From the NCBI GenBank assembly GCA_008632985.1, contig QPGO01000017.1, positions 434,001 through 498,000 of the forward strand: 64,000 nt of DNA, read 5' to 3'. Below are positions 5,260 to 64,000 of this stretch, one piece after another. The stretch's first letter is position 1. Each line of letters begins with the position of its first letter. A program made the position numbers and the translations under genes. Source of the DNA: Psammoneis japonica (taxonomy: Eukaryota). The notes under the pieces were generated by a model, which did not search any database, was not told the DNA's origin, and was given only the letters and a program-made list of their open reading frames with translations.

Positions 5260-5480
5260 AACTCTCTAGAGTAGAAGCCGTGGGAAAAGTAGGCCTACGT
5301 CCTACGTAGCTCTACTCTCTCTCTCTCTACTCTAGAGACTCTAGCTAGAGAGAGTAGAGCTAGCTGGTAGTAGAGCATAGCATTGTTCTCAGGGACATCA
5401 AAAATTAGTCCTCTTTTGTAGAACAGAGGGACTCTAGTAGCTATCTACTACATAGAAGTAGCTAGCTTTATGTAACTCTA
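5260..5480. repeat. CTAG/TAGAG/CT-rich low-complexity tract
   Basis: Repeated CTCTAGAG, TAGCT and (CT)n units. Confidence 0.7.
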
Positions 5481-5829
5481 ATTAAGAGAGTATTTACAAC
5501 ATCATTATCTGACCTCGCTTTTTCACAATACCATAGACCCAAGTCTGGAAGCGATGATGCCAAATGGCGGATATTGCAACCGCAATCACTTTGCAGCACT
5601 AAGAAACTGTATCAGCATCACAGATGCCAGTCACCAGCGACTAGCAAAAGAGCGCTAATAGACTGAATCGAGCTTTCAGTGCAGTATGAAAAGGTGATTT
5701 ATTCGTATTACAGTTGCATGCGGGAATCTTCATCCGCACGCTTTTGAAACGTCCTCACAGAGAGCACAGTTGAATTGGAAGCACCTCGTGACGCAAAATT
5801 TGCCCGCACCGTGGACACGTTTTGCGAAT

Positions 5830-12918: not shown

Positions 12919-15589
12919 TAGATGCGTATCAATTCTCAGAGGCCCTCGTTACTCTTCGTGGTTATCAAGCTGCAGCGTTGTCCTCTCGTCTAACGTCTAA
13001 CGTCGGAAGTACTAATGCGTCCAGCGTCGATTAGTTTTGAGGTGTGAGGTGTGAGCGGCATCAAAATGATTTTTCGCGCGATAAGGCTCTCTACTGGACG
13101 CGAGAAGACGACCTCCTCCGCCAAAGCAAGAAACGCGATGGATTGTGACATTTCGTCTTACAGACCTCCCAGTTGGGAGTGTTCGTCTCCCAAGAAATCA
13201 GCTGATCGAGACGAGGTCAATTCCCCTCCCCCTGGAAACGCAAACAAACAAGGAACGACCCCCCTGCCACATGTTCTTTGAGTCCACGTCTGAGGCAGCT
13301 GCTCGCAAGTCGACAGAGTCAAGTCAAGTGACAAAACAAGGCAGCTCTGGTGTCCGGGAGCAACAACGACTTTGGCACCCCAGAGAACCTGCCTGTCAAA
13401 GCAAAGGACAACCAGGCAACTCTGTCTGATTAAGGAGGACCAGCTGTGCAACCTGCCTTCTTTCCTTTCAAAGATTCTTCTCCATTGTGACATGTTCTTG
13501 AGCCTGGCACCTGGTGACAAAAAGGAGGGTGCGCACACAGGCCCATGCCGCCCCCCATGCTGGCAGAGAACAAGTGCACACATGAGCAAAAAACTCGCTG
13601 TCAACAAGCTCACCAAGGATGCCCTGGTCGATGAAAATCTCCAGGACAATGAACAGACACAATGAAGAAGAAGAAGAAACAAGCCAGTGTGTTGGCGCGT
13701 CCACTCAAGTTAAGAACAGGGCACCAGCAGCCAAAGGCAAGGAAGCTCGAAAGGAAAAAAGAGAAAGGGTGGCTCCTTCTCAAGTTGTCCTTCTCATCTT
13801 CCTCTGCATTCAACGGATCAGCACAGCGCAGTTCTTCCAGCATCTCCATGGGCACACTGCTGTTCTTGGGTGGCAAACTCCAGCACCAGCACCTCAAACA
13901 AAGCAGCACCAAGTTGGCATCCTCATCAGAACAAGAAGGCAGCTGAAAAAAATCTTGTTGGTGGGGATGCCACATGACACCCACAAAATTGTGGGAGCAG
14001 CCAAGTCTCTTGTCATGTGCAACCCCCCCCCCCCCCCCCTTTGTTCACAACTTGCTTGAGTGAGTTTTTGTCCCGCCCTTTCTCTGTGGCAAGAACAATC
14101 CCTCCTCTGCTCTCTTGCAAAAATGTGCCTGACAATGCCACACCTGCGAAAACAATGAAGCAGAAAAAAGGGAGGGTGTCTTGGCCAAACAACCAGGTGG
14201 TGAGTCAGATGGCAAATCAGACAACAATGAGTTGGGAGACAACAGAGAGAGGTGGTGTGAGCTGCACAACAGCAACACACTTGCAACAATGTGGCAGCTG
14301 CACCACAACCAAAGAGCAGCTGCAGCCACATTTCCCCAGGAGGATTGTGACAACAACAACAACTTGACAAAAAGCCTGTGTTCTTGTTGAGGGCCCACTC
14401 ATTGCAAACAAATTGATTTGACAATTAGCCAATCAGCAAAGGAGGAGCCAGACTTGAGGAAATTTGGTCTCAAAGCAGGCAGGTTCTCAACAAGACAAAT
14501 TGTGAATGTTGGCAGTGGTCAACCAAGTCAATGAAACAAGAAACCACAACAACAAACAAAACATTGCTCATTTCTGTGCAATGTTTGCTCTTTCCATGCT
14601 GGCAATGTTTGACATTTGGTGCATGCTCTTGTGCTCTCATTCTGTGCTGTTGCTTTGTTGCTTGCCTTTGTTCCCTTTGTTCTTCAAGCTGCTGTCCCAT
14701 CTTGCAGCCTGTCTTGCATCTCTCAGCATTCTTGGCTGTGCTGGCATTGCATCACACTCCAAACTTTTTGTGTTTCAAATGCAGTCAGTTTTTGCAACAG
14801 CTGGTCATGGTGAGACGTGAAAGCAAAATCTCTGAGAGGAGACAGCAGAGAAGATGTCAGCTTGGCATGTTTTCTTTGGCAAGTGTGGCACAATGCTGCT
14901 GTTTCTACTTGCCGGTGTGCAATGTTGCAGCAGTTTGTTTCTCATCCTTGGCCATTTTTGTCAACTTGTCTGAGCTTCAAGAAACAAAAAATGCAAAAGA
15001 AGGAAAGCATTGTTTTGTTTTTGTTTGCCAAAAGCTGCCTGCTCCCTTGTCACACTTTTGACCACCTGCCTTTCCTGAAGCATTTGTTTGTTGGTTTGTG
15101 CAGAGTTCTGCATGTTGTTGGTGCCTTCCTGCGATGTTGTCATTGTTTGCATGCTGCATTCATGCATCCTGCATTTTTGTGATTTTTTGTGTGGTGGCGA
15201 TGTGCCTTTTTGCCCCAGCCAACAAGCCAGTCAGCCTGGTGATCATTGCCTGTGTGTCATTTTGTAAGTTGTCATTGCAAAAGCTTTTTGTTGCACTCAT
15301 TTGTGAAGTTTCAAATCAGTTGAATTGACTTGAATGAGTCATTTCTTCATTGGCTTTCATTGCCAATGCACTTTGCTTGTGTGTGCACCCCCTCTCCACT
15401 CATTTGGCATCTGGGCATTGAACAGCACCAGTGCTTCAAACAGATGCATCACATCTGTTTTCAAAGAAGATTTGTGTCTCAGTTTTTGTGACCTCAACTG
15501 GCTCTTGTCAAGAATGAAATTTTCACATTTGTGCAGGCCCACTCAGCTTGTTTGCTTGTCTCCGTGTGGGGTGTGCCATTGCAGCAGCT

Positions 15590-17470
15590 GATCTTTGTGG
15601 CTGATCCAGACATGCGCAATGGCACCAACCACCATTCCAACCATTGCAATCTGAGGACACTGCAGCATCTGGCAAACCACAGGCAATGCTTTGAGGGCTG
15701 TTGATTTGGGAGCTGCAAGGTCAGTCTTCTGACGTTGCAGCCATGTTGCTGTGTCTCCAACAGCAGCAGACTTGAACTTCCAAACCCCACAGTGAAAGGA
15801 CCACATGATGGCACCAACCAACCTGGCAAAACTGCAAGCTGAGGGCACTGGAGGTGTCTGGTCAACCCCAGGCAACACTTCAAGAACTGTGGCTGAGCAT
15901 TGGAATGTTGACCTTGTGGTGTTGTGGCCTCACATGTCACCTTGGCCCGCCACTTTGGAAAATTGAACTTCCAAACTCCAGAGTGTGCAAGGAGATCCCA
16001 TGGTGGCACCAACCAGCCTGACAACTGCAAGCTGAGGGCGTTGGAAGTCTCTGGGAGGCCCCAGATGACACTCTGTCAACTGTTGCTGGATGTTGCAAGG
16101 TTGATGTTGCAGTGTCATGGCCCCATGTTGCCTTGTCCCCAATGGCAGCAGACTTGAGCTTCCAAACTCCAGAGTGAACAAGGGGCCCCATGATGGCACC
16201 AACTGACCTCTTGATGGCTGCAAGCTGAGGGCACTGGCAGCATCTGGCAGACCCCAGATGTTTTTCTAAGAACTGTGGTTGGGCATTGCAAGGTCAATCT
16301 TGTGGCAATGTGGCCCCATGTTGCCTTGTCTCCAAGCAACTGCAGCAGCAGGGGGGCAGACTTGCAACTTTTCCAGCTCTAGAGTGCTGCAAGGATCCAA
16401 CCATGTCAATGCCAGCTGACCTGACAGCTGCAGGCTGAGGACACTGACCATGTCCAGTGGAACCCAGGCAACACTCCTGGAACAGTTGTTGAGTGTTGCA
16501 AGGTTGTTGATCCATCTTGTGGTGTTGTGGCCCCATTTCATGTCCCCAACACCAGCAGGGGAGACTTGAGCTTCCAAACTTCAGAGCAAAGCAACTCCAT
16601 GATGGCACCAAAACCAACCTGATGGCAGCAAGCTGAGGACACTGGTGGTGTCTCTGGTGGACCCCAGGCAACACTTTGAGAACTGTGGTTGAGAGTTGCA
16701 AGGTTGACATTGTGATGTTGTGGCCCCATGTCACCTTGTCCCCAACAGCAGCTGACTTGACTTTCCCAGCTGCAAGAGAGTGCAGGGATCCCACAACAGC
16801 ACCAACCAACCCAGCCATTGCCAGCAAAGCACAATGGCTTGTGGCCTCTGGTGCTGGACTCAGGGCAAGATTTCAAGAATGGTTGTTGGGCACTGTGCAA
16901 GGTTGATCCTGCGGTGTTGTGGCTCCACAATGTCACTTGTGCCCAACAGCAGCAGACTTGAACTTCCAAAATCCAGAGTGAAAGGACCCCATGACACCAC
17001 CAGCCAACCTGACAACAGCAAGCTGAGGGCCCTGGCAGTGTCTGGCACACCCCAGGGTGCACTTTGAGAGCTGTGGCTGAGTGTTGCAAGGCTTGTCTTG
17101 TGATGTTGTCACCCCGTGTCACCTTTTGTTCCCCACAGCAGTGGACTTGAGGACTTTCCCAACTCCAAAGTGCAAGGATCTCACAATGGCGCCAACCAAC
17201 TTGACCACAGCCATTGGCAGAGTGCATTTTCAGTCTTTGACAGACCCCAGGTGAACTGTGGTTGGGCACTGCAAGGTTGATCTTGAAGTGTTGTGGCCCC
17301 ATGACATCACATTGTGCCCAACAGCTGTGGACTTGAACCTCCAGTCAAACTCCAGAGTGAATGACTGTGGCCCCATGTCACCTTTTTTTTCAACAGCAGC
17401 AGACCCAATTTTCTAAACTCCAGAGTTGGTTTGGTTGTTGCCAAATGGTGGTGGGTGAAGAGCAAAACTT
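15590..17470. repeat. Diverged tandem repeat, about 195 bp unit, about 10 copies
   Basis: GCAGCAGACTTGARCTTCCAAACTCCAGAGTG, CTGCAAGCTGAGGGCACTGG and GCAAGGTTGATCTTG recur with a period of about 190-200 bp. Confidence 0.9.
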
Positions 17471-18569
17471 CAAGGGGCCATGTGCTGGGAATGCCAGAAG
17501 CACAGAGTTGCCAAACAGCGACAAAATGGCTTGAGGAGGAAAATGGATGATTTTGCAGCAGCATTTTTGAAACAAGTTTCTCTTTGTTGGGGAACCAATG
17601 AAGAGCTGCAACAAACACTCAAGCTGTCCTCTGTTTCATTCAGATCAAAAGTTCAGGCAAGAATGGATCTTGTGGGAGGATCAGCTGGGGTGCAAGAAGT
17701 CAGAAATGTGAGGTCAAGCTTGTTTGTTGATTGCATGCCACACAACTTTTGGAGGCTTGCAGCCTTGTCAAGCTTTCTTTCCAGGCGAGTTGTCAAGAGT
17801 GAGTTTTTGTGGCCAATCTTGTTGACAACACAGTTTTTGCAATGTTGCACCAATCATCTGCTTTGACCTGTTGCACAAAGCTTCAACATGTCAAACAAAG
17901 GCTTCTTTCACCAAAGCCTTGGCTGCAAATGTTGCTCATGCAGTCTGGGTCCTGGAGCTGTGTGCACAGAGAATGCCTGCCCTTCTCTCTGACACGCAAA
18001 TTGGCACTTGGACAAGCATGGCACCCAAACAACCCTCTGCAATCTTTTGCAACAAGAGACAAAACTGGTGCACTTGCAAACCAACAAGGAAGAGCCACAC
18101 AGGCAGTGGGCATGATTTGGTGTTTGCTGGCAGAGAAACCCACTGACACAGCTGAAACAGCCAGAGTGCAATGTGCAAGCATGGAAATAAAATCACAGCC
18201 ATGTCAATCCAGACAACTTGGCACCCAAAAAAGCATTTGCAGCACATTTGTTTTCAATTGACCACTTCAAAGTGGTTTTGAATGAAGCACAGAATTTGAT
18301 TGATGCACTCTGAGATCTCTCTGGGTTGATGTTTGGTTTTGCAAAAACTTGTGATGTGATGACAAGGATGTCAAGTTGGTTGATGAGCACATTTGTGGCA
18401 ACAGAGGAAGCATGAATGATGACAAGGGTGGGGTGACATCATGGCCATTGTGGGGGTGGCTTGACATTGTGAGCTGGGCTCTGCTGGAGTGCAAATTGAC
18501 ACTGGACAGAAGAAAAGGATTCAAGTTTGCAGCTGCACTGTTCATTTGTTAAAAGGGGGCTGGCTCAAT

Positions 18570-19580
18570 GAGAAGTTTGACACTTGAGCCTCCAAACTCC
18601 AGAGTGAAAGGACCCCATGGTGGCATCATGTGGCACCAACCAACCTGACAACTGCAACAAGCTGAGGGCACTGGTGGCATTGGTGGGCCCTCAGCATGTG
18701 ACTTCAAGATCTGCAGCTGAGCATTGCAAAGTTGATCTTGTGTGGTGCAGTGGCCCCATGTCATGTTGTCCCCAACAGCAGCAGACTTGAGCTTCCCAGC
18801 TCCAGATTGCAAGGAACCCATGGTGGGGCCAGCCAACCCAACAAATGCCAGCAGAGGACACTGGTGGTCTTGTCTTTGGTGGACCCCAGGCAACACTTTA
18901 AGAACCATGGTTGGACATTGCAAGGTTGATCTTGTGGCATTGTGGCTCCATGGTGTCACTTTTTCCCCAGCAGCAGCAGACTTGAGTTTCCCAACTCCAA
19001 AATGAAGGGACCACACTGCAGCACCAACCAACCCAAAGACTGGCAGCACCAGTGGTGGACTCAGGCAACACTGCTGTGAGAGCCATGGTTGGGCATTGCA
19101 AGGTTGATCTTGAAGTGTTGTGGCCCAACATCATGTTGTGTCCGCACTGCAGCCTGAGGCCCCCAGCATGACAGTGCCAGCCAACCTGACAACAGCAAGC
19201 TGAGGAGACAGCTGGTGGCATCTGGTGTGCCCCAGGCAACACCCAAAGAACTGTTGTGTGGCCCCATGTCACCTTGTTGCCACAGCAGGCAGTGACTTGC
19301 CATTTCCAACTCCAGAGCACACAAGAATCTCCCATGGTGGCACCAACCAACCTGACAACCACTGGCAGAAGTTGGCAGTCTTTGGTGGACCCCAGGCAAG
19401 ACTTTGAGAGCTGTTGTTGAGCACTGCAGGTTGATCTTCAAGCATTGTGGCCCTGTGTCACATTGTGCCCAACAGCAGCAGGAGCGGACTTGAGCTTCCA
19501 AACTCCTGAGTGAAATGATCCCATGGCAATGCCAACCAACCTTGCAACAGCAAACATGGCGCCATCAACTGCCCCAATTT
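18570..19580. repeat. Second array of the same ~195 bp repeat, about 5 copies, same orientation
   Basis: Same motifs at about 18585, 18780, 18970, 19290 and 19485. Confidence 0.85.
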
Positions 19581-22424
19581 TCAAAGTTGCTTTGTTGCAG
19601 TCACAAGTGCCACGCACTCCTGTCAATGCTGTGGGCTGGTGGCAAATGCATGTTTCATGTGTCCCCAGCTGTGACCCACATGCATCCTGTGCAGCTCATG
19701 ATGTCATGTGTGATGATGCAGCGGCAGTCCATGTGTTTTTGTGCAAGGCAGCATCTGAAATTAACTTGATCATTGCACATCTTGAAGTCACAGTTGCAGC
19801 ATTGCCAGCTCTGTGAACAGCATCTGTGGTGAATCCAGAGTGGGTGGGTGGAAAGACCAGCTTGTTGAGGTGCAAGCATGAGACAGGAGTGCATCTGAGG
19901 AGCCTGGGCACCTGTGACGCCTTCATCATAAGTTGTCACCTTGGGTTGGCTGTGCCAAGAGCCACAAGTTGACTCACCCAGGTGCTCAACAATGCATTTC
20001 CCTGGTGGCTGTGCCACTAAAATCTGTGTCTTCTTGGCTTTGTTGTGGGTGTTTGCTTGATTCAACTGTGTGTGTCAGAATCACAAACTGGTCGTTGCTG
20101 TTGCTGCAGGGGCATTTGGGGCCCCAACTGCACCTGCAAGAACTGTGTTGGCTGCAACTGTGATTGCAACTTTGTTCATCTCTTTTCAAACATTTCATTG
20201 TGTGCGATGATTCCTGGTGCACATTTTCATGCTTGTTGTTGCACTTGCACTCATGATGATTTTTGCACGATCATTGTGGTCATTGTGTCATGGGTGGCAT
20301 TGCTGCGCTGTTTTTGAGCCTCTTTGATGACACACTTTGACATTTTACAGTCAACCACATTGCAGGTGTGTCCAATGTGTGGCTCCTTTTCATTGTGCCA
20401 CTCACACAAACATTTTTGGCAGTGTTTGCCTGGAGAGTCTTCTCAGTTGGTTCTTGCCAAGCAATGTTGCATCTGAGCTGGTCCTGAAGCAGCTCTGGCT
20501 GCCTGGGCCTTTCACTCAGGCTGTTAAGAAAAACAGTGTCCTCATGACATCTTGGTCTCCAGCTTGCAACTGGCTGCACTGCTTGTTTTTGACCACACAA
20601 GGCAAAGCATGTCCACACTGCTTGTCCTTGATGAGCTTGGGATGGTTGTTGAGAGCTTGACCTGAGAGCATCTTGGATCATTTTCAAGAAAATGACTTTT
20701 TGCTTGGCAAGTCAACCCTGGCTCTGGGCGGTCCTTGTCATGTGGGGGTTGCTCTTGTTTTCTGCAGGAATCTCTTTGTTTGCATTGTCAAAGTGCCAGA
20801 TGGCATCACCACACATTGAACTGTGCACCGCCACATTGAAATCTGCCAACCCTGTCTCACAGGTCTTGTTTCCAGTGTGACATGTGATTTGTCTCTTCCT
20901 GGAAACAGCGCCACTCTTTGGGTTTGTTGTTTTCTGTTCTGGCAAAGCACTTGACTTCAGCATGTTCTGTGATGCCTGGATGTTCATGTTCAGGGTCATC
21001 TGGGAGTGCATGAGTGACAAAGTCTGCTTTTCTCAATTGTTTTGTCTTTTTCTTTGAGAGAGTTGAAGTTGGAGAACAACATGAAACACAACTTGGCAGT
21101 GCACTTCCAAGCAACAATTTGCTGATGACCACTGCTGTCAGCATGAATGAGATCAAAATGCCAGAAGTGATGTCACTGTGTGCTGCACAGGCACTGTTTC
21201 TGATTCCATCAGATGTTGCCATTGCTTTGCAAAAGGCAAAATTGCAAGGAGCACTGTCACACACTCATTTGTTGTGATGCTTGGAGTTTGGCTGAGTCAA
21301 AAGATTTTGAGCAAGACTTCAAAGATGTCTTGGATCTTCATCAGCCATTTCTTGCATGGCACGGGCAAGCACAATTGCATTGTCTGTCAAAAGGCGGTTG
21401 GCTCAGTGAGAAATTCATTTTGAAAGAAGAGTCTTTTTGTTGCTGTCAGTCATGTGATGAGAGGAAACACACAGTGGATTGTGACAGGGACAGGGGTGCA
21501 CCATTTTGTCATGCAAACAATGGGCCAGTGGCTGAGTTGTGTGGTGCCCCATGCAACAAAGAGACAACAAGTGCAGCAGAAACACACAAATGCGCACAAT
21601 GGGCAATGATCAAACCAAAGCTCTTCCAAGCAAATGAATCAACTTTGAACAAGATGCCATGCCACAAACAAAACATTGCAAATCAATCACCATCAGCAAA
21701 CCAGCTGTCAACCTCAAATGACAAATCCGGCAATTCCAGATTTTGGTTTGTGGCCAAAAACAAGCCAGCGTCAGAACATTGTTCAGAATCACAGCTGCGG
21801 TGACCACCTTGGTTGATTTTTGAAAAAATGAGACACCTGTCATGGCAAATGCAAACACAGGCAAAATTTTTTTGACTCTTCTGAACAAATCACTTCTTGC
21901 TGCAAACAACAATTTGCAATCTTGCTGTCAACTCTCTGTGCACCCAAATGTTTGATGTGAAACACAAAATGACTGAGCAGTGTGTGCCAGTGAGAGCTGT
22001 TGGACAACAAAAAGACTGGTGGCCAGAAGCTGGCAGTGCTGTTTGCTGGTGTTTTGTTTGTCAGCAAAGAAGCCTGCCCAGAGAGCATCAGTGTCAGGAG
22101 GCACTTGTTGGACCCACCCATGAAAATCAAGTGCTGCAGCAGCATGCTGTTGAGTTGGAGGTCATGCTGCGCACAATTCATTGACAGAGCATCACCAGAA
22201 AAGGAGCTGCAGTTTGCAAAGGGGCTCAACTGACAAAGAAACTGTGCTCAACAATGTGGAACAAGAGCCAGAAAGAGCTCATTTTGACTGCCACTGCCAG
22301 GTTGATTGGGGGTTGGGGGCACAATGGCAAGCATGACTCATGTGTCAAGACGAGTGGGCTGTGTTGCTGTTGTTGTTGACCAAGGACTCTTCCTTGCTTC
22401 CCTTTTCTTGTCTTGAACAAAAAA

Positions 22425-23160
22425 CACCGGCAATGAGAGAAGCAAAACATCATGAACCCACCCACCATTGGACAACCCATTGAATGACATGTGAGACACA
22501 GCAAGAGAAAAAGATCATGTCTGCCTGCTGTCAACAAGGTGTGTGCACTGTGCCTTGAAGAACCAGGCAGAAAGTGATGCAACAAACAAAACACTGAAAG
22601 CAAAAATCATGAGACCATTTTGGGTTTTGGTTGGATGTGGGCAATTGCAAATGACACTCTCTGCAGCACAAGGCAAAATGACTGAGAGATGAGAGCTGTG
22701 CCAAGTGGGCACTCTTCAAAAGGCTCAAAGTCCATTTGATGCTCACATGTTGGTGTGCCACGACAGACACTTGGGTTCAAAAATGGCTGTGGCACCGGCA
22801 ATGAGAGAAGCAAAACATCATGAACCCACCCACCATTGGACAACCCATTGAATGACATGTGAGACACAGCAAGAGAAAAAGATCATGTCTGCCTGCTGTC
22901 AACAAGGTGTGTGCACTGTGCCTTGAAGAACCAGGCAGAAAGTGATGCAACAAACAAAACACTGAAAGCAAAAATCATGAGACCATTTTGGGTTTTGGTT
23001 GGATGTGGGCAATTGCAAATGACACTCTCTGCAGCACAAGGCAAAATGACTGAGAGATGAGAGCTGTGCCAAGTGGGCACTCTTCAAAAGGCTCAAAGTC
23101 CATTTGATGCTCACATGTTGGTGTGCCACGACAGACACTTGGGTTCAAAAATGGCTGTGG
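22425..23160. repeat. Apparently exact 368-bp direct tandem duplication
   Basis: 22425-22792 is repeated at 22793-23160. Identical ORF translations occur at offset 368. Confidence 0.95.
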
Positions 23161-25050
23161 CTGCTCTGCAAGGAAGCAAAGAGTTGTTGTTGGCCATCTG
23201 CATGGGAGTTGACCAGAGACAAAATCAAGCTCACAGAATCTGCAAAGAGAAGTGGCAGTGCAACAAGAAAAAATTCCTTGCCAACTCTCTGCCAGCAGCA
23301 CTGTGTGTGGTGACTGCAGCAAATTCTGCCAAAACAAGTGTGCCAGCTCACTCTGATGCTGTCATCTTCACATGGATCACAGGAAGGTTGCAGGAAAAGA
23401 AGAGAAAAGTGCGGCAACATTGCCATCCTCATGTGGTGCTGCCACCATGGCAAGCTCCAATGTGTTGCACACTGCATGTGCTGAGGCTCCATGAGGAGCA
23501 TCATCTTGTGGGTGGCAGAGAAACATGGGTGCCACCTCCACATGCTGACTGAAGGCAAGCCTCAAAAACTTGGCAACAGCACAAGCAAGGACAAGACCTC
23601 TTTCTTGTCAATTCTTGAGAGAGCTCTTTTGGGACAGATGAAGGGTGCTTTCATGCCAAGGGGGCAAGACCAAGGGAGGAGATCCTGGAGGCTGCCAAAA
23701 GCAAAGAGAAGCCACTCTGCTGGCTGAGTGCAGCACAGGAAAGGTGAGAAATGCATGGGCCAACCAAGGTTGGGCTGGCCCTGGGTTGAAGAGATGATGC
23801 AAGAACTTGGCTGTGCCATGACCGGAGCATAAAAAATGAGAGATAAAAATGGGCAAAAGATTTCTGCAAAGTTGCCACACAGAAGCACCTTTTGCAGTGG
23901 GTGAGCTGAAAAAGAGAAAAGAAGGCAAAGGAGACCAGATTGGTGGGAGAGCATGGTGGTGGCAAAGAAGCAACCAGCTGAGCAGAGGAGGTTCAGACAA
24001 GCAGTTGTTTGTGTCATTTGTGAGGCAACGGCCAGGAGTTGAGCAGCTGCTGTGTCATGAAATGTTTTTTGCTGTGACCTGTGACTCATCAACACATTTG
24101 CTCCAAGCAGAGCCTGCAGCACAGCTGAAAAGACAACAAAAAAAATGTGGAGTGCACATTTGGGGTTTGCCACAAAAAGCTTTTGGGTTGATGCCAATTG
24201 GCCAAATTGGGCGGGTGACAGAATCCTGACTTTTTTAAATCAGAAAATCCATTGGATGATTTGGAAAACCCATTTTTTTTCATTGATTTTCCAAAGTGTG
24301 TGACAACAGTGGTTTTGTGGTGCCAATTTTCCCCCTCCTCAGGGCTCAGCCTTGTGCAATCTTAGAGTGGGAGCACCTCACTGGCACAGCCCCGAGCCAA
24401 AAGGAGTGCACACACGGTGGCTCAGCATGCTCAAGAAGTGGGCCAAGCTCCAACCCAAGATCAAAAAGTTTGAAATCTCAGATTGTGACATTGGGCCAAG
24501 ACCATTGATGCTGATCATCTTTGCCATGAGAGCGAGGCAGAAGAAGCGGGAGAGAAAGTCTCTCTCTCTCACAATGAGCGGATTTTGTTCCCCAGCTCTG
24601 CTCTTTCCTCAGCACTGGCAGCAGCATGGAGAGCCAACACAGTTTCCCTTTTTAACTTCTCACAACAACAAAGGGTCCTTCTGAGCCCGAACATTCTCCA
24701 AAAAGGCTGGGAGAAAGCCAGTCCAGCACCAGTGTTGCAAGTTGCACAACCTGGAGTGCGTGCCCAGGCAGCGCTTGGCTCAAGCGAACTTGGGTTCGCT
24801 GTCTGGAACACATTTCTCTCTGGAGTTCTGCACCCCATCTAAATGAAATTCTGCTAAGGGCACCAGCACTAAGCGGCAATTTTTTTGTTGATTGGTCGTG
24901 TTTCAACTGCTTGTGCCAGTGCAGCTGACGGCAGACCGGCTGACGAAGCAAAAGAATGTGACAAATGACTAAAAACGTGATTAAATACCAAAAAATCGAC
25001 CTCTCCAGTACAGAATGGACGTGGAAATCGTCTACAAATCACACAGAGTT

Positions 25051-47597: not shown

Positions 47598-47759
47598 TTC
47601 TTGTTGTGGTCATCTCACTGACGCGAGAGGTGGCGTCAATTTTTGGATGTCGCGAACGGAATTTGGAAAGTACACTTTCGGTCATATTGGCGAGCTTGCG
47701 TCCGTTCCGCCACCAAATCAGCCAATGAAAAGCATTCAAAAGTGGCAGAACAAGACCCA

Positions 47760-50700
47760 AAATTTCTGTTCATTCGCCAGCAGCCTTGAAAGATCGAGAT
47801 GAAAACTGAAAAGAAAGCAGTCCAGTTGTGATCAAAGCAAGGAGGAAAGAAGGGCAGAAGAGGCAGTCACGCTGGACAATGCCCATGTGCCACAGGGCAT
47901 GCCATTTTGTTTGCAACAGGATTTGAACAAGAAGAGTGAGACATTCTTGTCCTGTCCCCATCACTCGAGCATGCTTGCTGATGTCTGTGGGGCACAGCAG
48001 CAAGCAAAGCTGCGGCTGGCTGCCGGCTGGCTGCCCAGACCCAGCACAACACCTTGCCATCATCTGCATGTGCAGCAGATGAGTCTCTTTGCAGAGACCA
48101 TGTTGCGGGTGTGCTGCTGCCCCTGTGGGAGAAGAAGCGGGCATGTGCTCTGGTGCCAGAGGTGAGGAGCGGCTTTTGGTCTCACCAGCTTTGCAGGCAG
48201 GGCTGGTCTCGTGCCTGTTCTTGCAGCTGCTCATGCCCATGTGAAAGACAAACAACAGTCAAAACACTTGGTTGGTGTGACTTGAACCCAAGGAAGCCTG
48301 TTTTGGGGTGCATGCACACCAGAGTGGCGTCACAGACGCTGCTGCCACCAGATTTTCCATTTCTCCCAGCACCGCAAAGTGGAGTGATCTTCACATTGTT
48401 CCAAGGCAGTCATCTTTTGGAACAAGAGCAGTCTCACACCACTCAGTTGGATCCAAGCCATGCCAGTCATTGGAAGCTGTTTGAGCACAGCAGCCTCATG
48501 ATCTTGCCCTTGCAAACACAATGTGGCCGCTGGCTTTGTGTTGGTGGGAAATGCCCAGAGGTGTCCACCACAGCATTCTCCTCGTGCTTTCAGATCATCA
48601 GATTCAGCGATCATGTCGCGAACTCCACCACAGTCATGCACATGGAACTTGGCACATGCATTGCCATCTCGAGCAAAGAGTCTGGACAGCAATTCGGAAG
48701 CAGGCCCATTCATGAGCGAGATCAGTGGCTGGATTTGCATCTTCCGCCCAGTCCGCATGACTTTTGGTTCCTGCTTTTACTTTGTGCAGTGGCCAACATG
48801 GTCATTCAATGACCACTCGTGTTCAGAAAGTTTGATGAGCATTTGTGAGCCCTGCGCACCAATCAGTGCACAGCATGGCATGATGTTGGTGCCATCGCAT
48901 TTTGTGAACAAAACCTGCCAGCCTGCTTTTGTGATGATCCGCTTTGATGGATGTCTTCATGGCCACAGAAGCTACATGAAACATGGCATGTCAAGGCAAT
49001 CCCGTCCGAGCAAGCCTTCGAAATGGCAATCACGCTGATCCTCTCACAATTCCAAACTTGACCACCTGATCAAGCATCGACTTGCATCTTGCTGCTGTCA
49101 ATCATCATGCAGGCCTCTCTTCTTCTCTTCACCATGGTGCTCTTTACCATCGTTGACGGTGCTGTTCCATTCCCCATCAAACATGCGCTCTTTTCCTTTG
49201 CCGTCTTCATCGCGTTGAAGCAAGCCGTTCAATTTTCGAGCGTCGACGAGACGTGCGTTGCGACTGTCCGAGTCCTTGAGACCAAACCATCCAAGATGTT
49301 TCCAATCCAGTTTCCCATCGAGTGGTCGAACAACAAAAAGAGAAAGCGATCGAGCACTGCCAGCCATTCTGACGACGTTGAAGACTCTTCTTGTGAAACG
49401 AAAGTGCCCAAAACCGCCATGACCACTTGCAAACGCACCATCCATAAAGTCCACAAGAGCAAACGTTCGAAGGACAAGGAACGTGACTCTCCGTTTGATC
49501 GCCGAAAGATGCAAGCGTTGGCACGTAAAAATCTCATCAATGCCCGTCGCTTTGGCACAAACAAAAAGCCCGCCACTCAGAAGAAGCTCCGTCAGCATCA
49601 ACCGGCCGAAGATGTTCCAATTCTGCTCCGCATGCATCAGGAAGTGCAAGCCGTCAAGCACAAGGAAAAGGTCCAGGCTCGTCGTCGCCAGGAACAGTCC
49701 GCATCGTTGTTGGGAAGCAATCAAGGGAAGAATTCTACTGCACAACATGAGGAGGTGTCTCTGATGCTTTGATTCACTGTGGTGAGGGAACCAACTGGAG
49801 CTGTCCAGTGGGTCGTGACCAACTCACCGAATCATGGAATTTGCTCTCGGTTGCAAGCAAAAATCCAGACAAATGTCCAGCAATTTAGAACAGAAAAAAA
49901 ACACACAGAGCAATCCCACTCAACATCAAATCTGCTTTCGTCATTTAGACTAGAGAGCTGACTTTGTAGCATGTGTGCGTGGCGTGTTAGTTTCAAGTCG
50001 TGTTTGACACGATCCATCTTCTGTCACCTCAATCTTCTTTCTTGCCTTTTCATTGGCATGGCAGTCACTGACATTGGTCAACAAGTGCTTTCAAGAGTCT
50101 TTCGCATGGTCTGTCAGTTGACTTTTAGCTTGAAATGCCATCCAATGGTTGTGGAGCAACACTTTACAAATGCAAATGAGACAAATCTTTGTCATTGTTG
50201 GAACTTCACCTCGGATCCAATTGTCACCTCTCATCTCGGATGCAATTCGGCCATCACCTCTTGGAGTGCACAACCCTGTTTCCTGGCAAGGCGACATTGC
50301 GAAAACAGCAGTGCATGGCTTCTTCTCAGAGCAGAGTGCGTGTGCCGTGCTGTCCATGCACTCATTTCGGGTGACACTTGTGCAAAAGTTTGACAATTTG
50401 ATTTGCTTGCTGGTGGGCTGCACTCAATTTCTTGGCTTGCCTCTGATCGATTGTGTGGCTCCTGAAGCAACTTGACAAAGTCAGGTCCATGAGGAATTGT
50501 CAACCAGCGGTTCAAACCCAGATGAGAGGCAAAACAGCACATCTTGATTTGATCCACATTGACCATGTCCGCAACTCCTGGTGTCTGGCAGATCTCTCGC
50601 ATGTGGCAGAGAATTGCCGGAGTTGAGGCAACGCTGCGTGTGTTGGTTTTTAAGCAGACAATGCAAACTTCATCAAATCGAAGCAATGTCACAAACAAAT

Positions 50701-53700
50701 GAATGTCGCTCCGTCATTTTTCACTGCAATGAATTTTGTTTCTGAAGATGAGTCAATTTGATCAATGAACCGTCAACTGCTCATCGCTGTCGGGCCTGCT
50801 GCAAGTTGCAAAGCCGCAACGGCAAACGCGTCATTGGTGGTTGGATGGATCCAATCATTGACACTGTCGATTGTCATCTGCATTTCAGGTAGAGTCAGCG
50901 TCTGGATTCTTTGCAAAATCGTTGAATTCCAAGTTGAGCACGCATGATTTCCGAGGATTTGTTGCTGACAACAGCACTCAGCTTGGCATCCCGCAGGATG
51001 GGGACCGTGTGCTTGCCATCTGCATCCTTGGCTTCTTCGTGCAAATCTCTCACACTGAAGGAACCAAAAAGAGGGTCCGGGTCGTTGCCCGGGAGAGCCG
51101 TGGGGAAAGGCCCGCCCAAACCAACAGTGTTGTGAAATTCTTCTTCGTCAGGATTGCCAAACACCCTCTCATGGTGCCCGTCGCTTTCATCGTCGGGCCT
51201 TGTCTTGCGCCAAGCAGGGTGCACCACAGTGACAGAAATGCTGTCTTCCAGCCCCTTTAGAGCCCGCATTGGCAGAGCCGATGAGCCCATGGGCATGCGT
51301 TGGCAACATGCAAATGGCAGCGATTCTTTTCTGGAGGGAATTGAGCTCCTTTCTCTGTCATGCTTCAGTTGCAGCACAGAAGAAAACAGCAAGAAATGGC
51401 TTCTAGAGAGTCAAAGTAACCTCTGTGCAGCATCTTGAGGGATGTCGTCCAGAGTCCAAGTGTGGGTCGAAAACCAAAAGGGAAACACATGCAGTCGCAC
51501 TGTGGTTGCTTCATTTCTGAGATTCAGTTGGCTTGATTTCATCATGCGACACCTCCTCCCAGCCCATCTCTGGTGCTGAATGCAGGGAAGACAATGGAGC
51601 CTGCATGATTTTTGGCACATGGTGGCCATTCGTTGTCAATGGAAGCATCGCGTCCATGGCATCACAATGGACAACATAAAAAAAATGGTGACCAAGGACC
51701 AGCTAAATGCACTCGTCGAAACCAGGTTTTGCACACAAAAATGCTGAAGCTGGCTGCGTGTTTCTGCGTAGATGCAGCGCTGATCGATGACGTCACAGCC
51801 TCCCTCCAACACTGCGTGCAGTCTGCGCGCTGCCTCGAACTTCAACAACCGCAACCGCACAAATCCATTGCCCATGGCCAGACCCTGCACGAGATTCTTG
51901 AGATCCTCATGTTTGAACAACTGCACAGCAAAGACCATCACTTGCTTGAGCAGGCAACAGCTGCAAATGCATGTGACAGTGAGTTTTGTGGCTGTCACTT
52001 GTTTCGAATTACTTCTGTGCAGTTGCCAGCTCATCACGAGCAGGTTGCAACGTTTTGGTGTGACACCACATAGAATCCTGGCACGTTTCTACGCACAAGC
52101 GCATTTTTGCACATTTGGCGCAAAATGAGCCCCAAAAACTCAAAAATGTGCACTGCGCATTTAGCCGGTCCCCAATGGTGACTGAGACTACTTGAGACCG
52201 ACTGAGGACCAGGTTCAAGGTGATGTGAGGCACGGACAGACTTCTTTTCTCAACCTCCCTCGCTCGCTTGCTCTCGCCTCACAAATCGCAAAGTGGCGCA
52301 CGTGGCGTGCTCAAGGCATTTCCCTTTCCCCCCTGACCAGCAACAAGAGCATCCCCCACTCCCACCCCCTGACCAGCAATGAGGTCGCAACAACAAACAA
52401 ATAAAAACACCAAGCTGTCCTGTTGTTTGTCGAATCAAGCACCGTTGATCTTGAGTTGTTTGTTCATCAGAGGGACAAAAGAGGTGGCATGAATCACAGG
52501 TCATCATCCCCCACACTGAGCCATTGTGTGCACGTCTTCATTTGTTGGGTGGACCCCTCACTGATCAATCAACATGGCCACTTGTTGGGATCTCACCTTT
52601 TTCATTTGTTTGCATGTGTCCACATTTGCCCTTCATCTGAGTGTTGCCCACCAACATTGTGGTGTTGTTTTTTGCATTCCAACACTTTGGTTCAACAATT
52701 GACGTGCCCGACCAACACATGTTCATGGATGTCCCAGCATTTTCATTGCATGTTCTCTTTTTTTGTTTGCACTCAGCAACATTTCTAATTTTCCGATCGC
52801 AAGTTGTGCGCTCGATGTGTTCATTTTGTTCGATGGGGCATGGTGCATTTCAGCGGCAGCATGAATGGCGGTGCAATCATGAGCACATGCTGTGTGTGGT
52901 GTTTGCACTGCCAATTTGTTGCTGTGGCCATTCACTGTCTCCTCATTCATCACAAAGGTTGTGTCTGCCAAGGTGCACTCTTCTTCTTGATTTCTGTCAC
53001 TCTCTGTTTTACCTGGCACTGCAAGCATCACTCATGTCACTTTCTCCTCAACTGAGAGTGGCTTCTGCTGGTTTCACTGTTCCCCCCTCCAGCCAGAGTC
53101 AACTCTGGCAGTCACCACTCAAGCTCTTAAGGTCAATGAAACTGTCAGCCCAACAAGATTTGAACAAGAGCCAGACACTCTTGTCCTCTTTCTGCAACCC
53201 AAGCTTGCTGACATCTGTGGGACATGGCAAGCAGAGGCCCGAGTTCCAGCCCAGACCTGGTGCAACACCTTGCCACTGCTGTCCACATGGCAGACAAGTT
53301 TCCATGCAAAGACCATCGCAGGTGCCCCCATGGGAAAAGGGGGCCCATGTTCCAGGGTCAGAAGCAGCTTTCAGTCTGGCCACTGGCTGGCTGCAGGCGG
53401 CCAGTCTTTTGCCTGTCACAGCTCATGCCCATGTAAAAAACACATGAACAGCCAAGACACTTGGCCTGTGTGACTTGAACCCAAGCCCACCACTTTGGGA
53501 CACGCGCCAGAATGTGACATTTCAATGCTGCTGACAGATTTTCCATTTCCCGGCCAAGGAACAGAGTCGTCCATTGGCACCACTTGTGCTGCTGAAATTC
53601 ATCACTGCAGACTGTTCACTGTTTCCTTGTTCATCATTTTAAGGTCAACTGCCAAAATTCATTCTTCTTCAACTTCTGTCAGTTTGGCTGCTGTGTGCTG

Positions 53701-54300
53701 CAAAAAAGCACTGCCCCTCTGCCACCCGCCTGCTGCCTCTCTCTTTGGATGCTCCCAGGGCAGGGATCAGCATCAGTCACCATGCAGTGGGTGCAGCACT
53801 TGTCAAAGCATGGTGGCTTTGTTGTGCTCCCAATTTGATGCCAATTTGATGCATTGGTGGCAGTGCACACTCCTGCCAAACACAAAAGAAAGAATTTTGA
53901 CACTCAAGGGATGAGTGCGGAAGAAAGCCAAGCAAACCCAGGTGGTCAAGAACAGTGCTTGTCACCATGCAGCAGAGTGGGGAACATGCCTTACCTCTTC
54001 TCGATTGTGACACAAAAGCTTTTTCGTGAGAGAGCACTTTGCTTTTGCAGCTTCCATTCATGTCATCTGCAGAGCAAAAAGAATCCATCCACCTCAACTG
54101 CTTTTTTGTCTGTACGAAGGGGTGCGTGGTTCTCGAGTTCCGGTGTGTATGCATGGCATGGTGCGGCAACCGGAAACGCACAAAGTGCACGCGCGGAACA
54201 ACAACGACGACGACGGAACGCGATGAGGCAGCGCAGACAGCAGACAGCAGACAGCCACAGCGCAGAACTAACGCAGATCTGAGAGGTGTGGTTGTGCATT
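47760..54300. other. Second TpA-depleted block with decayed gene copies; CpG retained in patches
   Basis: TA is very rare and ORFs are nearly Tyr-free and Cys/His-rich. Contains two diverged copies of one segment (about 47910-48365 and 53150-53550). Confidence 0.85.
50430..51460 (-). pseudogene. Glutathionyl-hydroquinone reductase (YqjG/ECM4-type GST) pseudogene
   Basis: Frameshifted fragments in the correct order: FPPEKNRCHLHVANACPWAHR, RALKGLEDSISVTVVHP, GKHTVPILRD...VVSNKSSEIMR, DWIHPTTN..VCRCGFAT, LFVTLLRFDEVCIVC...REICQTPGVAD. Confidence 0.9.
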
Positions 54301-54337
54301 GAGGTGGGCAGGTGTCTGTCGTTCAGAATAGGCCCAG

Positions 54338-59289: not shown

Positions 59290-60950
59290 TGTTTGTGTCT
59301 GCTGTGGCGGTTTGCATCGATCTGATGGTGCAATGGCTGTCGCGCCGTGTCCATTGGGAACTTTTCCAACACAGGTTCTTACACATCTTGGTCCACTGAC
59401 CAGATCCACACAACATGGTTTGTTCACATGTCCCACATCCTCCGTTTGAGAACGAGTGGGAGACATTCCCAGAGGAGCCACAATGGCCATGCCAGTTCCA
59501 ACAAACTTGATTGATGTGCATCCATTGGGTCAACTCAAAGCACTCTGTCAGTGAGATTTTCTCCATCTCGTCTTCAAAAAGCTCCCAAATCATCACAGTT
59601 TTGTCTGTGTTGATGGCTGCAATGGCATCTCCACAACAAACATTGGCTTTTCCCAAATGGGGCTCTTTGGCTGCTGAACCACCACAAGATCTATCTTAAG
59701 AAATTTGGCACAAAAATCTTGCAGTTTTGACTTCCTTCCAAGTTGGTCTCATTGATTTGGGGAGTTCCATGGTTGTTTGCATTGGGCTGCCACAGTGTCA
59801 ATGTGATTTTTCACACATGCAAAACAAGAAGCCACCACAATGGACAATCTGAACAATGTGACGAATTGGCTGGCTCGTTTGTCCTTTTTCTATTTTGTGT
59901 GCCACCAGGCTTCCAAAACAGCATCAGCTCACATGTTCCTGATGCAAGCCCAGAACATTTGTTTGGGTGTGGGAGAAGGTGCACTCCAAAGAGCAGCAAA
60001 ATCTCAAGGAGCGGTTTGAGGTGGTGGGTCTGGAGAAGAAGAGGGGAGGAAATCAAAAAGCTTTGATGGCTCTGAAAGATCAGACGAAGATGTGGGTTGG
60101 GAGCAACAACATGAATTGCAAGGAGCCAACATTCCAGTCAAGGCACACAAGCCAATTTTGAGACCAAGATGGAGCAGCTTGAGATTTGTGAAAAGAAAGC
60201 CAAAACAAAAGCTTGCTCAAAGGATGGGAGGCTGGCACATCAGAAGTGAGGAGCTTGATCTGGCTGATGAGGCCAAACAGAAGACTGTGTGAAGTGCCTT
60301 TGCAGAGCACATTGATGAGTTTTTAATGTGCTTGTGTGGAGGAGACCATGGGAAATGGAGAAGAAGATGAACAAACACAAGATCAAGGAGCTCAGCAAGA
60401 CTGTGCTCCCCAGCTGCTTCAAGCCCCATGTCAACAACAAGGTGAAGGGCACCACATGTGTGTCTTGCAAACGATGATTGACTTGACATTGAGCCATGGT
60501 TGACAACCTTGAGGAAGATGTCAGCCTGGTGCCAACCAAGCACCAGCCTTGCCTGTGCATGCTGTGCAGCGCTGCACAGCTTGCCACTTCCTGAAGTGCT
60601 GCTTTTGGCACCCTCTGTGCTCCAGGAAAGCAACAGGAGGCACAACATGCTGGGACACAGAAAATTGACCACAAAGGCAAGTTGGCCACTTCTTCGTTTC
60701 ACGTGTGGAAAGCACAGCAAATGTTTTTCTGATTCAGACAGTGCGCTTCAATCTGTCTGCAGCTGATCGGACACGTGCACAAGAAGCAACAAAATGGCAA
60801 AACCTCTTGTCACCTGCATTGTTTGCACGCAAACTGTGATCTGTTTCTTGCTTTGTTCAGCTTACTGCAAATCATTTGTGGCCGATCTACGAGTTGCCAG
60901 CATGCTCAGCAAGAACAGCTTTATTAGCAACAGCAGTTGCTCTGCTGGCA
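59290..60950. other. Third TpA/CpG-depleted block
   Basis: Same composition as 13.3-24.95 kb, flanked by normal DNA. Confidence 0.8.
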
Positions 60951-63774: not shown

Positions 63775-64000
63775 AGCTCAAAGCTCTCAAAACCATCCTC
63801 GCTCGCGTTCACAGCAAAAAAGATGGCGGTCCGCATCACTGGGCGGGCATGCAACCATGGACAGCAGACAGCAGCAGGGAGATGAACTGAACAACAGCAC
63901 AGGACATCCATGAATGCCAAAAGCAAAAGGCAGGGACACTCACAAAATGGGACGGGGATGCACGAATGCGAGCGCGGGGTTCTTTCCTCCTGCCCCCCCC
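63775..64000. other. Probable start of another TpA-free block
   Basis: No TA seen in the last ~225 nt, CpG retained; ends in a C run. Confidence 0.5.

Follow-up and report, generated by a model that had tools for sequence, protein, structure and literature searches.

Hypermutation specific to TpA has been described in the alga Bigelowiella natans, in which it affects integrated giant-virus and virophage DNA (Mettrop et al., bioRxiv 10.64898/2026.01.13.699255). According to this preprint, A:T>G:C changes at TpA made up 230 of the 231 mutations recorded in hypermutable regions. In mutation-accumulation lines, the A:T>G:C rate in the same region was 6.85e-7, with every such change at TpA, against 3.9e-9 for G:C>A:T (bioRxiv 10.64898/2026.01.13.699255), which suggests that the TA process can run without a matching loss of CG. 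The process was active in 11 of 15 lines, with an ongoing rate about 1000 times the background, and the portion of the preprint considered here offers an ADAT2-like deaminase only as a hypothesis (bioRxiv 10.64898/2026.01.13.699255). In our literature search, this was the only report of TpA>TpG/CpA hypermutation, and no diatom report of TpA erasure was found.

Deamination of 5-methylcytosine (5mC) is an established process. In ascomycetes, RIP introduces saturating, dinucleotide-specific transitions into repeats, with short leakage into the flanks, and produces TpA from CpA/TpG. In diatoms, transposons are CG-methylated by DNMT5 (Hoguin et al., PMC9998398), and the portion of that article considered here does not mention deamination.

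Here, we analyzed a window of 64,000 nucleotides from Psammoneis japonica. This eukaryotic DNA is gene-dense, with Atg11, MCM, Polo kinase, RPC5, ABC, and AAA genes, and its open part has a CG observed/expected ratio (o/e) of about 1.05, a TA o/e of 0.58–0.66 and a CA/TG value of about 1.1. Five blocks depart from this composition (1–1.6, 13.1–24.8, 47.7–54.3, and 59.3–60.9 kb, and from 63.8 kb onward): TA o/e is 0.03–0.14 and CA/TG 1.4–1.9, i.e., clustered TpA depletion with CpA/TpG enrichment, the rest being normal. The total of pyrimidine–purine (YpR) steps is constant in all regions (o/e 0.90–0.98) and, because it is conserved, the missing TA and CG became TG/CA. AA/TT steps are not depleted (80 per kb in open DNA, 85 in cores, 75 in partly converted DNA). 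GA/TC steps are also reduced in the cores at 13.4–24.8 kb and 59.35–60.85 kb. As reported for B. natans, TpA has thus turned into TpG/CpA on both strands in local regions, leaving TpA-poor clusters rich in CpA and TpG, but the loss is near-complete here (TA o/e 0.03–0.10, versus 0.45 there). The locus also resembles RIP in its saturating, dinucleotide-specific transitions in repeated DNA and short flank leakage; however, TpA falls and CpA/TpG rise here, whereas C>T changes at CpA in RIP raise TpA.

The blocks differ in how much CG they keep. The initial annotation held that block cores lack both steps, and this is borne out in two cores: CG o/e is 0.09 and TA o/e 0.03 at 13.5–24.3 kb, and 0.13 and 0.05 at 59.45–60.7 kb. 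From counts, the larger core extends over 13374–24840 and contains an old tandem array of approximately 190-bp units (transversion divergence 0.135); at 15600–19550, the units of this array are 64–77% identical and all their TA and CG are erased. An exact 368-bp tandem duplicate (22425–23161, 100% identical) also lies within this fully converted core, and is either very recent or an assembly artefact. The smaller core, delimited by counts and change points, covers 59290–60863 with short fringes of 58 and 168 bp. The block at 47688–54329 (change points, segment table, and counts) has a TA o/e of 0.09 and a CG o/e of 0.53, and is a mosaic: its repeat relics are old and poor in CG, and its gene copies are younger and have retained more of it. 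Relic A (47801–48600; CG survival 0.27, no TA) and relic B (53141–53560; CG survival 0.24) share about 66% identity, with a transversion divergence of 0.106, and contigs join them. No viral or transposon Pfam match was found among the frames of the blocks; the targets seen are multi-copy DNA, repeat relics, and a copy of a host reductase gene, not recognizable viral DNA such as the integrated sequences reported as targets in B. natans.

Within this mosaic, the open frame at 49089–49772 (684 nt) was initially described as keeping dozens of CG, with about 3 TA and no Tyr. It has 45 CG (o/e 1.05), 4 TA (o/e 0.10) and no Tyr codon; its description as CG-retaining does not stand, as sister copies reveal that CG was lost too. 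From the YpR share of open DNA, 27.5 TA were expected (P 4e-9), and in open DNA a sliding window of 684 bp held at least 11 TA at each of 744 positions, and so never 4 or fewer. When the same Tyr-free protein was recoded in host codon usage, 25.1 ± 4.1 TA were obtained (minimum 12 in 5000 draws), so the missing Tyr does not explain the TA shortage. The same TA-poor, CG-keeping state had been noted in three other tracts, and the counts agree: 13 TA (expected 62) and 75 CG (89) at 1–1500, 3 TA (12) and 19 CG (17) at 54050–54300, and 0 TA (9) and 11 CG (13) at 63775–64000. The two short tracts are weaker cases, given that open DNA also yields such counts: no more than 3 TA in 2 of 156 windows of 250 bp, and none in 1 of 173 windows of 226 bp. 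By change points, the last tract belongs to a TA-free, CG-keeping segment (63779–64000) that starts a further block running past the end of the window. The proposal that this state occurs mostly at block margins did not survive: among the 14 TA-low/CG-high 300-bp windows (of 214), only 2 are edge fringes, while 6 are interior to the 47.7–54.3 kb block, 5 form the 1–1.5 kb tract and 1 lies in open DNA. The frame itself is 1.4 kb inside its block.

From its first ATG, this frame is an ORF of 221 aa on the plus strand (49107–49772) with, as judged by eye, a signal-peptide-like N-terminus and a basic C-terminal half. No relatives were found in Pfam, among 250 candidates of 121–387 aa, among 1.84 billion representatives, or in the Atlas. 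Public contigs over the ORF include several differing sister copies; their depth (500–840, versus 61.5 on the flanks) is not a copy number, and only the presence of differing contigs was used. Among the listed contigs of run X2, those that match closely lie on the flanking genes and those within the block are diverged sisters; an RNA run could look like this, although X2 is not recorded as RNA and lack of cover is no evidence. Among the 40 best supported of 493 differences to sister contigs, there are 20 YpR transitions, 7 other transitions, and 13 transversions. Nine of these YpR transitions place a TG/CA of the window opposite a sister TA and nine opposite a sister CG; in the reverse direction, there is one window CG facing TG and one window TA facing CA. 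In the same best 40 of 493, 9 of 10 TA-type differences therefore run from sister TA to window TG/CA, and AA>AG-type differences amount to 2 towards the window and 2 opposite, i.e., no net AA>AG, as opposed to 9 at TA. As in the B. natans report, other A:T contexts are thus spared, considering also the intact AA/TT steps.

These changes are visible in the protein. Where the sisters have Tyr codons (at 49365 and 49428–49430), the ORF has His (49365) and Cys (49429), and, among the listed differences, five TG/CA steps within the ORF face sister CG, three of them giving His/Cys in place of Arg. At loose contig ends read by eye, 3 of 6 sister CGs at 49586–49615 are CA in the window and, just upstream of the ATG, two TA became TG and one CG became CA; the TTG start assigned initially at 49089 is itself a converted TA step. 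The sister Tyr codons and CGs indicate that the ORF once had Tyr and that its CG count is normal only because the family is CG-rich. A real family frame is probable, as the differences outside YpR steps seem conservative, with 5 of 13 synonymous, and a listed insertion preserves the frame. For the same reasons, the reading of the ORF as a chance frame opened by loss of TAA/TAG, which occurred in 47% of simulated blocks, was dropped. The ORF is a mutated family member and, as far as its sequence tells, a TA-erased, partly CG-decayed copy from a multi-copy family to which no function is assigned. In run X2, one contig matches the ORF no further than its upstream sequence and signal-peptide-like start (49107–49149) and diverges thereafter, which suggests a 5′ module common to another gene.

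The same block contains, on the minus strand at 50423–51355, a frameshifted copy of a glutathione-dependent reductase gene (GST domain), aligned with relatives at 34–64% identity. With misaligned stretches near the frameshifts left out of the count, this copy keeps none of 8 conserved Tyr, all 8 being now His or Cys, and 5 of 6 conserved CGN Arg, with two more CG-type changes. Just 3′ of the ORF, five surviving TAs, each followed by G, are clustered at 49886–49990 in otherwise erased DNA.

At the other end of the window, the minus-strand tract at 1–1607 is TA-erased and largely CG-keeping according to counts and change points. This tract is apparently the last exon, now frameshifted, of a gene; the exon–intron repeats upstream in that gene retain TA. 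These repeats form a tandem array on the minus strand (1573–2760) whose unit of about 190 bp is an exon with its intron (GT...AG, approximately 90–100 nt). The TA edge, at about 1607, falls inside this one gene without a CG change point, and its last exon enters the frameshifted, TA-erased tract of 1–1570. At 1573–2730, the array has 85–92% identity and a transversion divergence of 0.058, and is not TA-erased. It was considered as a snapshot of an early stage and rejected, as it shows no TA excess (0.053 versus 0.049). Since TA is kept at a divergence of 0.058, targeting, rather than age or repetition alone, would decide erasure. The comparison with the duplication trigger of RIP is accordingly mixed: the ORF and reductase copy are multi-copy, yet the 85–92% identical array is spared, which argues against repetition alone as the trigger. 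Residues 70–245 of the frame at 690–1439 had no relatives among 416 longer candidates.

The two losses proceed at unequal rates. Around the ORF, the summed differences to the run X2 sister contigs give a survival of 0.05–0.06 for TA and 0.62–0.71 for CG. Roughly one third of the CG would thus have been lost, versus about 94% of the TA. The resulting ratio of TA to CG loss rates is 6–8.5 over nine background settings, a rough figure obtained from summed counts over four contigs and 1065 bp with an assumed background. In a two-rate model with one exposure variable per window and separate TA and CG rates, equal rates are rejected (log-likelihood 50–55 lower), and the best ratio is about 5 in 500-bp windows, with a plateau from 6 upward in 300-bp windows. 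The deviance per degree of freedom of this model is 1.4, compared with 1.7–1.8 for open DNA about its own mean; as the single-exposure fit is as good as the scatter of open DNA, separate TA and CG maps are not needed. At 49773–50230, 7 TA are kept at a CG survival of 0.37, which goes against the simple two-rate curve. Expressed as rough historical rates, TA loss runs at about 300 times the per-type transversion rate and CG loss at about 40 times the background. Similarly, the TA change reported for B. natans far outpaces all G:C>A:T changes in that DNA.

The two losses are also nested rather than independent. Of the 214 windows of 300 bp, 48 are low in both steps, 14 are TA-low and CG-high, and none is CG-low without being TA-low. 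Among 200-bp windows, the sole case of low CG with high TA is at 5300–5500, an AG/CT microsatellite with an inverted repeat at 5307–5362. Tight co-variation of the two ratios would have spoken against the initial proposal, and the window computation instead gave a relation that is not linear (Spearman 0.48). Uncoupling of TpA loss from CpG loss therefore applies to rate and not to space, in which CG is never lost without TA and one exposure fits both. That TpA conversion is faster than 5mC decay is upheld, with equal rates rejected and a ratio of about 5–8, provided that 5mC is what causes the CG loss.

We consider it likely, if well short of certain, that the same silent domains undergo two mutation processes which differ in chemistry and in speed. 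The faster of them would change TpA to TpG or CpA, best when a pyrimidine follows the A (equivalent to a purine preceding the paired T), and the slow one, about 5–8 times slower, would change CpG to TpG or CpA. DNA that recently entered a domain, such as the ORF, the reductase copy and the 1–1.6 kb tract, would have lost its TA and part of its CG; the same state would be found in the fringes (about 140 bp) in which the domain tapers off; and old DNA would have lost both. Silenced chromatin would carry CG methylation, with its slow decay, and attract a TpA mutator that works within about 2% neutral divergence.

By analogy with Phaeodactylum, we infer that the domains are silent and CG-methylated by a DNMT5-type system, with CG loss presumably arising by deamination of 5mC. 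In agreement with such a system, CG turns into TG/CA only in repeat blocks, genes keep a CG o/e near 1.05, and G/C flanks protect CG in the cores. However, the methylation is a supposition here and would account for the slow half only, as it cannot change TA. The loss of CG may be enzymatic too, because about 40 times the background is high for spontaneous deamination and 5mC occurs without hypermutability in Prasinoderma, according to the part of that study considered here (PMC11884799).

The edges of the blocks bear on whether the TpA process is faster or reaches further. At all six edges with both TA and CG change points (those at 1607 and 63779, without a CG change point, being left out), TA changes farther out than CG, by 278, 81, 23, 214, 58, and 168 bp (mean 137 bp). 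The first offset corresponds to the left-edge fringe of the large core (13095–13373), in which TA is gone and CG intact, and is the only one of the six whose interval (97 to 744) excludes zero; that of 214 bp (95% interval −41 to 563) corresponds to a TA-poor, CG-normal fringe at 54115–54329, just upstream of an AAA-ATPase gene. When the edges were stacked on a data-derived origin, a procedure that sharpens steps, survival over the first 100 bp inside was 0.08 for TA and 0.96 for CG, the latter then falling to 0.25. In simulations, coincident step edges gave a mean offset of at least 137 bp in at most 0.3% of cases; with equal rates, a 600-bp ramp reached this mean in 8% and six positive offsets in 0.5%; and when the ratio was set to fivefold, a ramp of that length yielded a mean offset of 148 bp.

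A TpA mutator might therefore follow a mark or guide other than CG methylation and extend about one nucleosome past the methylated domain, including un- or partly methylated gene copies. The six positive offsets, their rarity with coincident steps, the contrast in the stacked edges, and the TA edge at about 1607 that cuts one gene without a CG change point are all in favor of such a different reach. However, the ramp with a fivefold ratio reproduces the offset, the stack has a data-derived origin, five of the six intervals include zero, and the ORF and reductase copy have lost CG, which places them inside the CG-losing domain. We regard a separate reach as unlikely, albeit worth keeping in view. 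The initial claim that TpA conversion reaches further thus describes the edges correctly, but a graded edge with a faster TpA rate has the same effect; "faster" and "further" cannot be separated by sequence.

Further evidence for two chemically different processes comes from the flanking bases. Among TA steps, 1 RTAY survived of 266 expected, versus 35 YTAR of 145 (p 3e-15). For CG, survival in partly converted DNA does not vary with the flanks (0.58–0.64, p 0.7), and in the cores the order is reversed, at 0.16 for RCGY and 0.05 for YCGR, with G/C flanks protecting; in these cores, TTAA survival is 0.48 and that of TCGA 0.03. A 5′ T, on both strands, protects TA and speeds the loss of CG. The CG steps hardest hit in the cores at 13.4–24.8 and 59.35–60.85 kb are those in TCGA (2 of 65 expected remaining), and the least affected are those between G/C flanks (33 of 174). 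The opposite flank rules, together with the TpA-only hypermutation reported in B. natans, make the TA and CG processes look chemically separate; the chemistry is thus probably distinct, in line with the initial suggestion of a distinct process. The nesting of CpG decay inside TpA loss and the measurable flank rule also distinguish this locus from what is reported in B. natans: in a term search, the words CpG, diatom, flank, and context were absent from the main text of that preprint, whose supplement could bear on the flank rule.

One linked process could also be envisaged, in which repair at methylated or damaged CpG would involve error-prone polymerase patches that miscopy TpA, CG loss being a rarer failure of repair. 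Strict nesting and the good single-exposure fit are in keeping with it, and polymerase eta favors WA>WG. However, the counts above give no depletion of AA/TT steps, AA>AG-type differences are balanced while those at TA are not, and the strong RTAY/YTAR rule points to sequence recognition, which leaves linked repair improbable. Still more doubtful is one deaminase with two activities, strong on A in TA and weak on C or 5mC in CG. The shared domains and the fast, roughly 40-fold loss of CG would suit such an enzyme, and the B. natans preprint cites ADAT2 enzymes that accept A as well as C; on the other side, the flank rules are opposite and only 1 of 211 mutations in a B. natans giant-virus region was not A:T>G:C (bioRxiv 10.64898/2026.01.13.699255). 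Finally, an ordinary expressed gene, naturally Tyr-free and TA-poor, would fit the 221 open codons, conservative sister differences and in-frame insertion, but with 4 TA versus 25 expected for this protein, sisters that carry Tyr codons and flanking DNA equally TA-erased, this case raised initially does not hold and is scarcely credible.

If two processes of different chemistry are at work, the fast one may tentatively be attributed to a TadA/ADAT-family deaminase converting A to inosine in silenced DNA, an assignment in line with the proposal of the B. natans preprint, to which we give slightly less than even weight. At the before/after sites, the A of TAC was changed in 7 of 8 listed cases (p 0.035), or in 9 of 11 when loose contig ends, read by eye, are included; this bias is weak and cannot tell deamination of A from modification of T. 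TadA prefers YAC. The direction of the products deduced from composition is inconsistent between cores and partly converted DNA. Modification of T and an error-prone polymerase are the alternatives for this step.

The proposal that the ratio of the two losses could date silencing is largely incorrect. From 0.67 in open DNA, the TA/CG ratio drops to 0.09 in the ORF and rises again to 0.38–0.5 in the cores, and it separates untouched, early, and late DNA. However, the model curve has a U shape with a flat bottom, such that the ratio is two-valued and saturates early, and late ages depend on CG alone: the ratio stages rather than dates, and as a dating tool is weak. CG survival presumably tracks age, falling from about 0.66 at a transversion divergence of 0.019 (gene copies versus sisters) to about 0.25 at 0.106 (relics A and B, 0.24–0.27) and 0.07 at 0.135 (core array), a trend of three points that depends on the starting CG content of each segment and in which sister divergence bounds the time since silencing without measuring it. 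At all three divergences, TA is near its floor, already at about 2% transversion divergence. From these three points, CG retention would mark young inserts more than margins. A clock of this kind would break if, as reported for 11 of 15 B. natans lines, the process were active in only some lines.

The relation of TpA hypermutation, described in 2026 in one alga, to CpG decay is now visible in another lineage. Action in the same domains, at a several-fold higher speed and with opposite flank rules, argues for a dedicated mutator and not a side effect of cytosine decay, and provides testable numbers: a rate ratio of about 5–8, a fringe of about 140 bp, and RTAY erased with YTAR spared. More speculatively, and with low confidence, a natural DNA adenine editor that prefers T-A-pyrimidine may be recruited to DNA upon its silencing, earlier than CG methylation and extending about one nucleosome past it, and remove the Tyr codons from copies of genes and transposons within about 2% neutral divergence; the succession of TA and then CG loss would order silencing genome-wide, and the system would be common to stramenopiles and Rhizaria. 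If true, the natural occurrence of an A-to-G DNA editor would have implications for genome defence and base editing. In practice, TA-poor, CG-rich DNA would mark copies silenced recently, and annotation should not treat long Tyr-free ORFs from these blocks as functional genes.
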